15,423 nucleotides of DNA. It comes from a virus. Taxonomy: Duplodnaviria > Heunggongvirae > Uroviricota > Caudoviricetes. The translations under genes and the position numbers were made by a program. Positions 7,167 through 10,672 of this stretch are shown one piece after another; position 1 is the first letter of the stretch, and each line of letters begins with the position of its first letter. The notes under the pieces were generated by a model that did not search any database, was not told where the DNA came from, and saw only the letters and a program-made list of their open reading frames with translations. The stretch covers positions 1 to 15,423 of the IMG/VR virus record IMGVR_UViG_2698536618_000026. One strand, written 5' to 3'.

Positions 7167-7293
7167 ATCCTGTGGGTTTCTTTACAAGGATAAATCTTTA
7201 CTTGATTTTAGTGTATTCGATCCTTTTGCAACTTGCATGTTAATTTAAACTTGATGTATTCTTGATTTATAAAGTTAATATTGGTGATTTGTT
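7167..7293. promoter_or_regulatory. cI-cro divergent promoter/operator region (PRM/PR-like)
   Basis: 127-bp AT-rich spacer between divergent repressor and cro-like genes. Three CTTGAT motifs (7201, 7250, 7262) and TTGCAA/TTGCAT -35-like hexamers. Exact -10/-35 assignment not resolved by eye. Confidence 0.5.
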
Positions 7294-7566
7294 ATGAAAG
7301 GAAATGATTACGACAAACTTCGTACATTAATTGCGCAAAATGCCATAGCGCGAAATCTTGGTGTGACGCCGCAAGCGGTGAATCAGTGGTTTTCAAAAAA
7401 CACAATTCCTGCTCGTTTTGTTTTACGCGTATGTGAAGTAGTTGCATGGAAGGTCACGCCACATGACTTAAGGCCAGATCTTTATCCTCACCCTGAAGAT
7501 GGAATTCCTGATTCGTTACGCAAAATTTCAAATCCAAGCCTAGCGCACACGGAAGATGGGAAGTGA
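7294..7566 (+). CDS. cro: Cro/YdaS-like HTH regulator
   Basis: 90 aa. LGVTPQAVNQWFSKNTIP HTH and a DLRPDLYP segment resemble YdaS/Cro-type proteins. First gene rightward of the repressor. Confidence 0.65.
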   Translation: MKGNDYDKLRTLIAQNAIARNLGVTPQAVNQWFSKNTIPARFVLRVCEVVAWKVTPHDLRPDLYPHPEDGIPDSLRKISNPSLAHTEDGK

Positions 7567-7636
7567 TGGTGGTGATATGAGCGAAAAAATAACTATTAAA
7601 TACGATGGGACAACCATTTCGATTGCCCCGATCACA

Positions 7637-7930
7637 TTAGCGTTCGCTGAGAAGTTGTTGGTAAGCCTTAAAGGATGCGAACTGCATTCTACCTTCGGCA
7701 TTGATTCCAATGCCTTCGCTTGTACACCAAGCGATGAACTCGGCTGTATCCGCTTCAACTTTAATAACTCGTTGCCCGCCTCTTTCGACACGCTTAATCA
7801 ATTTTTCAGCGTCGTGTTTCCACTCGGTGTAACTGTCGGAGAGCACATCAGCATCAGTAAAAATATTTTTGAGCTCATGATACTGAATCGCATCGCGAAA
7901 CCAGAATAAACCAACGGCCTGAACTTTCAT
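7637..7930 (-). CDS. Hypothetical 97-aa protein encoded opposite to the early-right operon
   Basis: Strong AGGAGG SD 6 nt upstream of the ATG at 7930. Globular-looking composition, whereas the overlapping plus-strand ORF 7556..7909 looks like antisense translation (S/L/F-rich). No family recognised. Confidence 0.55.
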   Translation of the reverse strand: MKVQAVGLFWFRDAIQYHELKNIFTDADVLSDSYTEWKHDAEKLIKRVERGGQRVIKVEADTAEFIAWCTSEGIGINAEGRMQFASFKAYQQLLSER

Positions 7931-8007
7931 GTCGAACCTCCTTTGGTTCTTTTGTTTATAGGGATCAAAAGGATAACTGAAGGAAGGTTCGGCACCAATA
8001 AGTACGA

Positions 8008-8757
8008 ATGTGCGGAATCTTAAAAGAATTTATCCGTAAGGAGATGGCAGTGAACACCGCAATTTTTAACGGCAAAGCATCCATGACCAGCCTTGAAATC
8101 GCAGAGCTGGTGGGTAGTCAGCACTCAGATGTTAAACGTAGTATCGAACGCCTGGTTGCTAAAAACATCATCCGGAAACCGCCAATGGCTGTTTCCGAGA
8201 AAATCAATAACTTAGGTTTTAAAGTTCAATATGAGCATTACCTGTTTGAAGGAGAACAAGGTAAACGCGACAGCATCATTGTCGTCGCTCAGCTCTGCCC
8301 TGAATTCACTGCTCGCCTGGTAGATCGCTGGCGCGAACTGGAAGAACAGATCCGTAAGCCAATGAGCGAAATCGAAATGGTTGCCGCGATGGCTCTTGAA
8401 GCTGTTCGTCAGCAGAAACGGATCACTCAGGTGGAAGAAAAAGTCAGCCACGTTGCCGAAACAGTTGAGCAAATCAAAAAGGGCACCATTCGTGAGGGCT
8501 ATGCCGGATATCGCCAACTGAAAGCGAAAACCGGTTTGTCAGATGATAAATGCCGCAATCTGGTGAACGCTTATCAAATTCCTACAGACACCCATGAGTT
8601 CATGACGCCGGACGGATTGTTGTCACGTCGCGCAATTGTTGCCGTGGAACCGTTTATGGCTGCTTTTTATCGGGTTATGGAGGAAGCAGAACCGCGAGGG
8701 ACTCGCTGGTATCACCCGAAAATGGGGTTATTTCAGGTTATTGGTTGGCAGCGGTGA
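8008..8757 (+). CDS. Rha-family phage regulatory protein
   Basis: N-terminal ...NGKASMTSLEIAELVGSQHSDVKRSIERL matches the Rha signature. The true start may be ATG 8044 or GTG 8050 (AAGGAG at 8038-8043) rather than 8008. Confidence 0.7.
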   Translation: MCGILKEFIRKEMAVNTAIFNGKASMTSLEIAELVGSQHSDVKRSIERLVAKNIIRKPPMAVSEKINNLGFKVQYEHYLFEGEQGKRDSIIVVAQLCPEFTARLVDRWRELEEQIRKPMSEIEMVAAMALEAVRQQKRITQVEEKVSHVAETVEQIKKGTIREGYAGYRQLKAKTGLSDDKCRNLVNAYQIPTDTHEFMTPDGLLSRRAIVAVEPFMAAFYRVMEEAEPRGTRWYHPKMGLFQVIGWQR

Positions 8758-8781
8758 AAAAAAGCCGGGAGTAACCCGGCT
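8757..8781 (-). terminator. Rho-independent terminator oriented leftward, abutting the Rha stop codon
   Basis: Minus-strand hairpin GCCGGG-UUACU-CCCGGC followed by 7 U. On the plus strand the hairpin is followed by UCACUC, with no U-tract. Confidence 0.55.
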
Positions 8782-9165
8782 CACTCAACATCAATAACGG
8801 GGAGCTGTTTCGCATAAAACGGCTCCGAAACATCCAAGAACAGTTCTAAAGATATCAGCAGCTATATGATCATTTCAAGACCAAATATTGATTCTGCAAT
8901 TCCGGGACGTTACACTGTTCAGGCACCTTATAAAGCGGGTGCCGGGGGTCGCAGCCCGGAATTGTCAACGGCGATATATGACGCGCCAGCGTCTTTTTTA
9001 TCGTCCGCGCTCACGCACGCCAGAATTATGGTGGGCTGGGCAGGGGAGCCGAAAGGCTCGCCGGTCTCCGTTGACGCCGGTACTGCGAACCCTGTTCAGT
9101 CTGCCACCAGTGAGTTTCGCAGCTCCGGTGGTGGAAGTTTTCCACAGTCAACGGAGGCTGCCATC

Positions 9166-9528
9166 ATGGCTACAGTCCCAACCCACTCATTCCTCAAAAT
9201 TGAGAGCGTCAACGGCAAGGCCGTTATTTTCTCCCTGCATGTTGCCTGCCACTTTAAGCGCATGCACCAGAACATCGTCGACAAAATCGAGTATCTGAAC
9301 TGCTCACGCGAGTTTTTTACCCGTAATTTCATACCGGGTACTTATCACATCTATGGCGATTCCCTGCGTGGTTATTACATCACCCTTGATGGGCTGATGA
9401 TGCTTCAGCTTGGGTTAAGTCTGCGCACAATGCGGTACTACGAGAGCTGCATTGAAGCATTCCATGAGGCTGAAACCAGTCTGAATCACACTGCTTTCCG
9501 CCGTAATCAATGGGAGGTGCGCCCATGA
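9166..9528 (+). CDS. Small Rha-like domain protein (120 aa)
   Basis: GGAGG SD 8 nt upstream of the ATG at 9166. LKIESVNGKAVIFSLHVACHFKRMHQNIVDKIEYL parallels the N-terminus of the 8008..8757 Rha protein; YYITLDGLMMLQLGL fits the Rha core. The track extends this frame to 8866, but that extension has a low-complexity A/G/S/P-rich composition. Confidence 0.5.
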   Translation: MATVPTHSFLKIESVNGKAVIFSLHVACHFKRMHQNIVDKIEYLNCSREFFTRNFIPGTYHIYGDSLRGYYITLDGLMMLQLGLSLRTMRYYESCIEAFHEAETSLNHTAFRRNQWEVRP

Positions 9529-9749
9529 TTCGTCGCGTTGTGAATTCTCTGTATCACCGATACAACCGTTGCCCCCGAGTGGGGCAGTGGTTTACCACCA
9601 GCAACGGCCTCGTTCTGCGGGTTTGCCTGGTCAATGCAGAAAGTCAGAAGGTTGTCTGCCAGGTGCAGGGGCGTACTTATACCCTGAGTTACCCGCTGGT
9701 GGCGTTTCAGTCCGGAAAAATGTTTAAGCGTCTGGGAGGTGTCGTATGA
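9525..9749 (+). CDS. Small phage protein (74 aa), paralog of the 1806..2048 product
   Basis: GGGAGGTG SD 5 nt before the ATG at 9525. ATGA overlap with the upstream stop and with the downstream start. Shares the pattern GQ-aromatic-aromatic-T...G...V with the left-arm 80-aa protein. Confidence 0.5.
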   Translation: MIRRVVNSLYHRYNRCPRVGQWFTTSNGLVLRVCLVNAESQKVVCQVQGRTYTLSYPLVAFQSGKMFKRLGGVV

Positions 9750-10672
9750 GTAGCAAGATCCTCGGTAATGTCTGGGATGCATGCGCAGCATATGGCGTCA
9801 AAGGTGCAAAACTGATGATTATGGCGCGCCTGGCTGATTATTCGAATGATGACGGGGTGTGCTACCCGGGTGTTGAAACCATATGTCGACAGCTTGGATT
9901 GGGAGAAAGTACAGTCAGAACGGCAATCTCCGAACTGGAGGCTGATGGCTGGCTGACGCGTCAGTCACGCCGCAAAGGTAACCGTAATACGTCCAATCTT
10001 TATCATCTGAATGCTGATCGGCTTGAGCAGCTTGCCAGAACTGAGCGGGATAAGGTTGCAGAACTGAAACAGCAGCGCAGACTTTCAGTATTACGTGACC
10101 CTTCAGATTCTGAACCTTCAAAATCTGAACCGTCAGAATCTGTATGTTCAGGCGTGTTTGACCCTTCAGATTCTGGCAAAAATACGCGTTTGACCCTTCA
10201 GAATCTGACTCCAGATCCACAAGGTTTAAAACATGAACCACCAGTAAATTCAAAACATGAACCGCAAGATATTGGCGCATCCGCTGACGCGTCTGCACCA
10301 GCGCGTTCTGCCAGACAGGAATATTCACCGGAATTTGAACAGGCCTGGCAGGAATATCCCAAACGTGCTGGTGGTAATTCAAAATCCGCCGCTTTTAAAG
10401 CCTGGAAAGCCCGAATCAGGGAAGGTGTGACACCCGAAACCATGCTCGACGGTGTGAAACGCTATGCCGCCTGGGTGCGTGTCTCTGGAAATACCGGTAC
10501 CCAGTTCGTGAAGCAGGCGTCGACGTTCTTTGGTCCCGATCGACACTTTGACGAATCCTGGCAACAGCCTGCCGTTCCCGGAGGTGGGCGGCAAAGACAG
10601 GTCGATGTCCTGTCTGGCCTTGGTGCCATGTCTGACAAATTCGGTAAATCCAGCGACAAATTGACATTCTGA
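9746..10672 (+). CDS. Replication initiation protein (O-like; N-terminal winged-HTH) with intragenic iterons
   Basis: 308 aa with GGGAGG SD. N-terminal wHTH-like region (CYPGVETICRQLGLGESTVRTAISELEADGWL). Its central part is encoded by a DNA iteron array, as in lambda O/ori. Followed directly by loader and helicase genes. Confidence 0.7.
   Translation: MSSKILGNVWDACAAYGVKGAKLMIMARLADYSNDDGVCYPGVETICRQLGLGESTVRTAISELEADGWLTRQSRRKGNRNTSNLYHLNADRLEQLARTERDKVAELKQQRRLSVLRDPSDSEPSKSEPSESVCSGVFDPSDSGKNTRLTLQNLTPDPQGLKHEPPVNSKHEPQDIGASADASAPARSARQEYSPEFEQAWQEYPKRAGGNSKSAAFKAWKARIREGVTPETMLDGVKRYAAWVRVSGNTGTQFVKQASTFFGPDRHFDESWQQPAVPGGGRQRQVDVLSGLGAMSDKFGKSSDKLTF
10096..10207. repeat. Iteron array (putative replication origin) inside the initiator gene
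   Basis: Direct repeats TGACCCTTCAGATTCTG at 10096 and 10159 and TGACCCTTCAGAATCTG at 10191, plus degenerate copies AACCTTCAAAATCTG (10113) and AACCGTCAGAATCTG (10128). Followed by an AT-richer stretch containing AAAACATGAACC twice (10229, 10252). Confidence 0.6.

Follow-up and report, generated by a model that had tools for sequence, protein, structure and literature searches.

A constrained minus-strand gene of the uncharacterized family phrog_4753 on an optional cassette next to cro in a lambdoid prophage

The 97-amino-acid (97-aa) open reading frame on the minus strand between cro and the Rha-family gene of a lambdoid prophage is a real, strongly constrained protein gene, and we hold it almost certain that this real gene sits on an optional cassette. 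It is a member of a catalogued, very large and wholly uncharacterized protein family, phrog_4753, and is an ordinary moron-type feature of its prophage. As an overall explanation of the locus we lean towards an autonomous accessory cassette (a moron) of ~500 bp placed at the 3' boundary of cro.

The minus-strand gene and the frame opposite it

The stretch of DNA analyzed here (15,423 nucleotides, called the window throughout) is a lambdoid prophage that adjoins mlrA and is 100% identical to E. coli O39:NM str. F8704-2; its gene order and the features discussed below are collected in Table 1. RefSeq already calls the 97-aa coding sequence on the minus strand, as a hypothetical protein, and all of the other annotated genes to the right of cro are on the plus strand. 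The predicted product has a mass of 11.2 kDa and a pI of 5.65, and the stop codons of the gene and of cro, which converge, are exactly 70 bp apart. An earlier reading made from the letters of this DNA alone (the sequence-only reading below) had pointed to the minus-strand frame with its AGGAGG Shine-Dalgarno (SD) sequence, to a gap of about 70 bp between the convergent stops and to the plus-strand orientation of the other right-arm genes, and each of these is borne out (the last for the annotated genes right of cro). The Rha-family gene next to the cassette begins at ATG 8008 when called mechanically (8008-8757); its true start is better placed at GTG 8050, which is preceded by AAGGAG and is backed by PGAP and by alignment with the Roi gene of PhiR49_2.

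Table 1. Positions of genes, signals and other features in the window.
Feature	Position	Strand	Basis or remark
Integrase	75-1361	-	Gene order
Leftward early arm	between integrase and CI-type repressor		Gene order
S24/HTH CI-type repressor (cI)	6471-7166	-	Gene order
YdaS/Cro-type gene (cro)	7294-7566	+	Gene order; stop codon TGA 7564-7566
Accessory cassette, ~500 bp	7539-8038	.	Presence/absence unit relative to PhiR49_2
Antisense shadow ORF, 117 aa	7556-7909	+	Fully overlaps the 97-aa gene; judged non-genic
3' stem-loop (7599-7638) with T-rich tail (7585-7598)	7585-7638	-	Flagged by consensus scan; terminator-like
97-aa gene	7637-7930	-	ORF and translation; RefSeq WP_000867909.1; phrog_4753 member
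Stop codon TAA of the 97-aa gene	7639-7637	-	Read directly
Long imperfect inverted repeat (hairpin)	7930-7994	.	Covers start codon, SD, 5' UTR and promoter spacer
Shine-Dalgarno AGGAGG	7937-7942	-	Read directly; 6-nt spacer to ATG 7930-7928
Sigma-70-like promoter candidate, TTGGTG-17 nt-TATCCT	7970-7998	-	7/12 consensus positions; weak
Rha-family gene, Ash-family gene, replication genes, Q	right of the 97-aa gene	+	Gene order

The coding strand was assessed in homologous loci from IMG/VR, one Phytobacter genome and E. coli genomes, which together represent 15 distinct DNA versions. Among these the variable columns are distributed 30/13/70 over codon positions 1/2/3 of the minus frame, and the dN/dS of the minus frame is 0.03-0.11 between lineages whose proteins are 73-81% identical, whereas that of the plus frame is about 1 (0.65-1.27 between deeper lineages). 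The SD, a strong one, is kept as AGGAG, GGGAGG or TGGAGG in diverged loci, and across the family the protein is conserved at 25-45% identity where the DNA can no longer be aligned.

The plus-strand frame opposite the gene (7556 or 7578 to 7909, co-directional with cro) would, if it were coding, be either the real gene or a second, overlapping one. It is open across most or all of the 97-aa gene in five lineages, has a start codon and an SD-like sequence after cro in four, and its first ~20 residues are superficially similar even in Elizabethkingia phage EKP1 and in Klebsiella phage Kp4865-4; in EKP1 it is the plus strand that GenBank annotates. However, this frame shares codon position 2 with the 97-aa gene and so meets a stop only opposite a TTA, CTA or TCA codon of the gene, and openness is to be expected from the small number of codons that could take these forms. 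Simulations that take account of the small number of Leu and Ser residues in the gene and of codon usage in the window give a chance of an open plus frame of P 0.09-0.32 per lineage and a combined (Fisher) P of 0.05-0.08 even with the lineages taken as independent, and when 90-codon windows of the other genes are read in the same register, about 11.5% of them are free of stops. In addition, a 1-nt deletion removes the start of the plus ORF in one lineage (L027-L032), the ORF is truncated in the window relative to the other lineages, the "conserved peptide" stretch at its N-terminus is the site of the minus-strand-specific hairpin and T-rich tail (below), and Pfam and PHROG searches gave no family match for it. 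From these observations and the dN/dS values (above) we conclude that the plus ORF is an antisense shadow of chance-level openness and not a gene, and a coding role for it is very improbable. The sequence-only reading had likewise taken the minus frame for the gene and the plus frame for antisense, and had named conservation of the plus ORF as the result that would speak against it; the comparison came out against the plus ORF instead. Dual coding by an antiparallel overlapping pair was considered and dropped on the basis of the stop-avoidance simulation, the dN/dS values, the L027-L032 frameshift and the coincidence of the peptide with the hairpin. The EKP1 annotation in question, "hypothetical protein 21" (L004, GenBank OM284015.1, 4001-4396), lies opposite a phrog_4753 homolog and is probably a strand mis-call. 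EKP1 itself resembles an enterobacterial lambdoid phage, having a DUF4222 gene and 66% nucleotide identity to window positions 9746-10269.

The cassette and its candidate transcription signals

The cassette is optional and moves between phages independently of immunity type. In local blastn comparisons phage PhiR49_2, whose cI, cro and Rha are the same, matches the window at 5912-7538 (96%) and again at 8039-9226 (86%), and between its homologous cro and its homologous Rha/Roi gene it has 30 nt in place of the intervening DNA, which makes the latter a clean presence/absence unit; the gene had been described from the sequence alone as inserted between cro and the Rha and replication genes, and it is indeed an insertion, and an optional one, at the 3' boundary of cro. 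E. coli SCU-387 carries a 100% identical cassette beside a different cI and cro. Distantly related lambdoid loci, from Phytobacter and from IMG/VR contigs, align with the window over 7586-8000 only, which comprises the gene, about 50 nt behind it and about 70 nt ahead of it; there this segment occupies the equivalent site, flanked by an unrelated cro and, on the other side, by a gene (CII-like or other) that is likewise unrelated. Of 5,426 complete E. coli genomes 75 have the cassette, in every case on the chromosome and with a hypothetical protein as the annotation. E. coli SE11 (NC_011415.1; 99% identical) is another strain that carries it. Two of 33 IMG/VR copies (L026 and L033, gene 4001-4291) have premature stop codons in place of W37 and E36, so the gene is dispensable in some prophages. 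A profile-based locus search with a diverse alignment gave nothing, as that alignment had no conserved stretch. Several features of the surrounding mosaic were also seen: many E. coli prophages share 7534-8757 (the cassette plus Rha) and have different immunity regions, other E. coli prophages share the immunity region and have no cassette, and window positions 7526-7538 are a recurrent mosaic junction at the cro end.

Behind the gene, beginning at its stop codon, lies a stem-loop followed by a T-rich tail that the consensus scan flagged as terminator-like. Its predicted folding energy is -18.3 kcal/mol (z -3.4) on the minus strand versus -7.0 (z -0.2) on the plus strand, and its inner 9-bp stem (7621-7629 with 7607-7615) is paired in all six of six diverged homologous loci, where the changes in the stem are one-sided wobbles only and are compatible with the gene's strand only; the U-tract behind the hairpin is interrupted and imperfect. 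We consider this 3' hairpin a candidate intrinsic-terminator-like element or 3' stabilizer of the gene's own mRNA. The sequence-only reading was mistaken in seeing no recognizable terminator between the two convergent genes, and the collision with the pR transcript that it envisaged is not a given with a strand-specific hairpin and T-rich tail behind the stop.

On the other side of the gene, the sigma-70-like promoter candidate falls below the scan threshold (7/12 against 9/12 consensus positions), and the consensus scan found no promoter at that site; its hexamers and 17-nt spacing are kept where the flanks are unrelated (TTGGTG or TTGGAG, then GATATT or TATCCT). A transcript from this candidate would start near 7965. 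The long imperfect inverted repeat at the 5' end of the gene is predicted to fold at -29.3 kcal/mol (z -5.4) on the plus strand versus -22.9 (z -4.1) on the minus strand; three of four lineages retain it, its G.U pairs can form on the plus strand only, and it has no Rfam match and no U-tract. It lies directly upstream of the ribosome binding site of the next early gene and may act there in the rightward transcript. In any transcript of the 97-aa gene begun upstream of 7994 this hairpin would sequester the SD, so that translation would depend on where the transcript starts. A plus-strand terminator-like hairpin at 7934-7949 was considered as a tR1 analogue and dropped, since it is not conserved in the other lineages.

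The protein family, its fold and the position of its members

The 97-aa protein matches the phrog_4753 HMM (PHROGs v4) over its whole length (residues 1-97 on profile positions 1-97 of 97; E 2.5e-49, 166.3 bits), and the same profile is matched by 138 of 138 sampled relatives, none of which matches a Pfam family. A word-indexed search reached close enterobacterial relatives only; an exhaustive HMMER search among 1.84 billion representatives (50% identity clusters) gave 1,118 clusters with E <= 1e-3. The function entry of the PHROG is "unknown", and neither Pfam nor NCBIfam has a model for the family. Whether the query was the 97-aa protein itself or one of two family profiles, nothing above noise came back from Pfam, NCBIfam, PADLOC or the PDB sequences. 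Likewise, we found no paper on the accession, the PHROG or the gene position, and no conserved operon partner, domain fusion or characterized relative that would indicate a biochemical function. The sequence-only reading had not recognized the family and had proposed profile HMM and structure searches, adding that homologs in a characterized housekeeping family would contradict it; the searches lead instead to the full length of uncharacterized phrog_4753 and to fold relatives that are uncharacterized as well (below).

Nearly all family members are stand-alone proteins of about 100 aa, and at least 93% of them retain each of seven near-invariant residues (W10, D26, W37, G52, W68, C69 and R81). 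Charge is not a consistent property of the family, whose median pI is 7.8 versus the 5.65 of the 97-aa protein. A few multidomain members were noted (P0020, P0025, P0036 and P0100), in which two or three copies of the domain with coiled-coil linkers occur, and the tail of one multidomain member weakly resembles the C-terminal part of ribosomal L7/L12 (E 0.015); as clues to function, such repeats and this weak tail are uninformative.

The 97-aa protein is a soluble, slightly acidic, single-domain alpha/beta protein in which no transmembrane (TM) segment, nuclease, NTPase or other effector or enzymatic domain was found. Its AlphaFold2 model (114-sequence alignment; pLDDT 92.7, pTM 0.83) consists of a strand at 5-10, helices at 14-21 and 34-50, a strand at 54-59, and helices at 62-72 and 78-96; neither the protein nor its 138 relatives match a helix-turn-helix (HTH) family, and the model has only this strand-helix-helix-strand-helix-helix order. 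Its near fold relatives are uncharacterized proteins only, and the sole one with a solved structure is SO3848 (PDB 2OX6), an Aca2/YdiL-like HTH regulator of unknown function. SO3848 of Shewanella oneidensis is described as a structural homolog of the anti-CRISPR-associated repressor Aca2, with an HTH and a C-terminal domain whose strands are longer and which has an additional helix as well as two additional terminal helices (PMC8434428). Because the order of elements in that C-terminal domain agrees with our model, and because Aca2 and YdiL themselves give no structural match to the 97-aa protein, we infer from the model that the protein may resemble the SO3848 C-terminal domain minus the HTH. 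Sequence identity between the two is 12-16% and the family profiles miss 2OX6. Unlike genes of Aca2-type regulators, the 97-aa gene has no linkage to acr genes.

Homologs adjoin cI or cro, oriented against the lytic operons, in at least 13 divergent temperate phages, with one exception. In seven lineages (type A: the window, L006, L036/37, L038, EKP1, P0200 and P0179) the homolog lies between a Cro-like gene and the remainder of the early operon and is opposite to both; in three (type B: Kp4865-4, a Salmonella prophage region and P0160) it sits on the far side of cI, in the gap before the leftward operon, and is convergent with cI; and in three more (type C, primase-carrying elements) it follows one small gene and converges on a small gene or on a YdaS-like operon. 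The exception is Bcep176, where the homolog is co-directional inside an operon, and so the anti-orientation is not universal. The HTH genes on which the homologs converge belong to varied families (YdaS-like, HTH_3 and others), and for this reason what recurs is a place next to immunity genes and a direction opposed to that of the flanking lytic operons; neither an orientation shared with the repressor nor partnership with a specific Cro is constant. Of the orientation described in the sequence-only reading, the part directed against pR is thus found in many phages, but "the same as the repressor" is not conserved, as three lineages converge on cI. A specific Cro partnership was rejected on the same ground and on the occurrence of identical cassettes with different cI and cro.

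A large subgroup, in Syntrophorhabdus among others, consists of chromosomal proteins of about 101 aa whose genes are monocistronic and stand in ordinary non-phage settings. Stress genes are often near these relatives (L046, L047, L056, L058 and L059); the neighbors include rubrerythrin/ferritin, flavin reductase, Flavodoxin_2/FMN_red (twice) and Flavodoxin_5, and also HMA, glyoxalase, Fur with catalase-peroxidase, ArsR and a TehB-like methyltransferase. The association with redox, metal and electrophile-stress genes is inconsistent and without statistical support, and these neighbors, together with the near-invariant Cys69, hint only weakly at a thiol or redox role.

What the cassette may do in the prophage

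The architecture of the cassette is consistent with the following scheme. While pR is repressed, i.e., in the lysogen, the gene would be transcribed leftward from its own weak candidate promoter, and most of this transcription would end at the 3' hairpin, short of cro; upon induction, transcriptional interference or read-through from pR would silence it. Judged from these signals, expression mainly in the lysogen seems somewhat more probable than other patterns. The protein would act via a conserved surface or pocket made up of the seven conserved residues (above), a proposal that is based on their conservation and their secondary-structure positions. It would have a generic target, either some host component or a small molecule or ligand, rather than the adjacent Cro or CI, because identical copies serve prophages with different cI and cro and because the invariant residues are common to the chromosomal non-phage relatives; we put the chances of a generic target at about even.

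A moron is expected to be present in one and absent from another of two homologous phages and to have its own terminator. The comparison with PhiR49_2 gives the former, and for the latter there are the scan flag, the strand specificity of the hairpin and its stem in 6/6 loci, with an imperfect U-tract. Examples of lambdoid morons and of immunity-region accessory genes that lysogens express are rexAB, bor and lom of lambda and BstA of BTP1-like phages. The cassette is like these in being optional, at a module boundary by the immunity genes and outside the pR and pL operons, and in having translation and terminator-like signals of its own; it differs in that its protein is unrelated to their products in sequence and fold and matches no defense model. 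It also differs from morons in composition, which is not anomalous (GC 0.436 versus 0.478 for the window).

The leading idea of the sequence-only reading was a prophage-encoded defense or superinfection-exclusion factor, made in the lysogen and blocking incoming phages, and this we consider unlikely. Its attraction lies in position: the cassette is optional, beside immunity genes and anti-oriented to the lytic operons, and three homologs use the gap between cI and the leftward operon, which is where the defense genes lambda rexAB and those of BstA type lie. Nonetheless, PADLOC-DB 2.0 gave no credible defense match (the best was BrxC, E 0.026, 10.7 bits over 34 residues), the protein is small and has none of the TM or effector domains listed above, its close fold relatives are uncharacterized only, and many of its relatives are single genes in ordinary bacterial chromosomes outside phages. 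A toxin-like function, offered in the same breath, finds no more support, as no toxin or antitoxin family was matched, the antitoxin model TIGR01552 (Phd/YefM) scored E 0.055 and 12.8 bits, under its cut-off of 20.8, and the cassette has no partner ORF for a type II toxin-antitoxin pair.

Improbable, too, is a modulator of the lysis-lysogeny switch that binds the adjacent Cro- or CI-like HTH protein as an anti-Cro or dimerization partner. The gene does almost always adjoin and converge on a switch HTH gene, and Aca2-like SO3848 has a comparable alpha/beta domain after its HTH that mediates dimerization (PMC8434428). However, the 100% identical cassette occurs with unrelated cI and cro alleles, the convergent partners come from different HTH families, convergence is sometimes on cI and sometimes on cro, which would have opposite regulatory meanings, Aca2 and YdiL are not structural matches, and the chromosomal relatives have no HTH neighbor.

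That the cassette works at the level of RNA or transcription, by convergent transcription or as an antisense RNA to the pR transcript or cro, with the protein incidental, has very little likelihood: the convergent layout, the 70 bp between stops and the two conserved RNA hairpins would suit it, but the protein is under strong purifying selection and is kept across the family beyond the reach of DNA alignment, the 3' hairpin is specific to the gene's mRNA and lies ahead of cro, which argues for a stop short of cro, and no Rfam family is matched. Lambda OOP RNA (from pO) and P22 sar RNA are leftward transcripts convergent with the rightward early operon. The cassette resembles them as a leftward unit between cro and the replication genes that converges with pR; it differs in encoding a strongly constrained protein and in having a terminator-like hairpin before cro.

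For the window itself, the autonomous cassette that we favor means mainly a tidier annotation: the minus-strand gene is real, the plus ORF is its shadow, and the cassette has its own terminator-like hairpin. A broader and doubtful reading is that phrog_4753 is a widespread, undescribed domain whose phage members are lysogeny-associated effectors with a conserved Asp/Cys/Arg/Trp site. It would cover temperate phages of alpha-, beta- and gamma-proteobacteria, in which the gene stands beside the immunity switch in anti-orientation, and would imply an activity in common with the chromosomal relatives, which tend to have redox and metal-stress genes nearby; one example would be a sensor that depends on a thiol or ligand and links host stress to prophage behavior or lysogen fitness. 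A very large family of small proteins that has one solved structural relative, and neither a Pfam model nor a literature, and whose phage members hold a strikingly constant position beside the lysogeny switch, is a cheap and well-defined target for functional work; a phenotype for any phrog_4753 member would annotate thousands of genes.

Directly to the left of the CI-type repressor, two minus-strand HTH genes (5882-6325 and 5633-5848) have weak PADLOC matches, at E 1e-7 to 5e-7, to RmrA and to HTH components.
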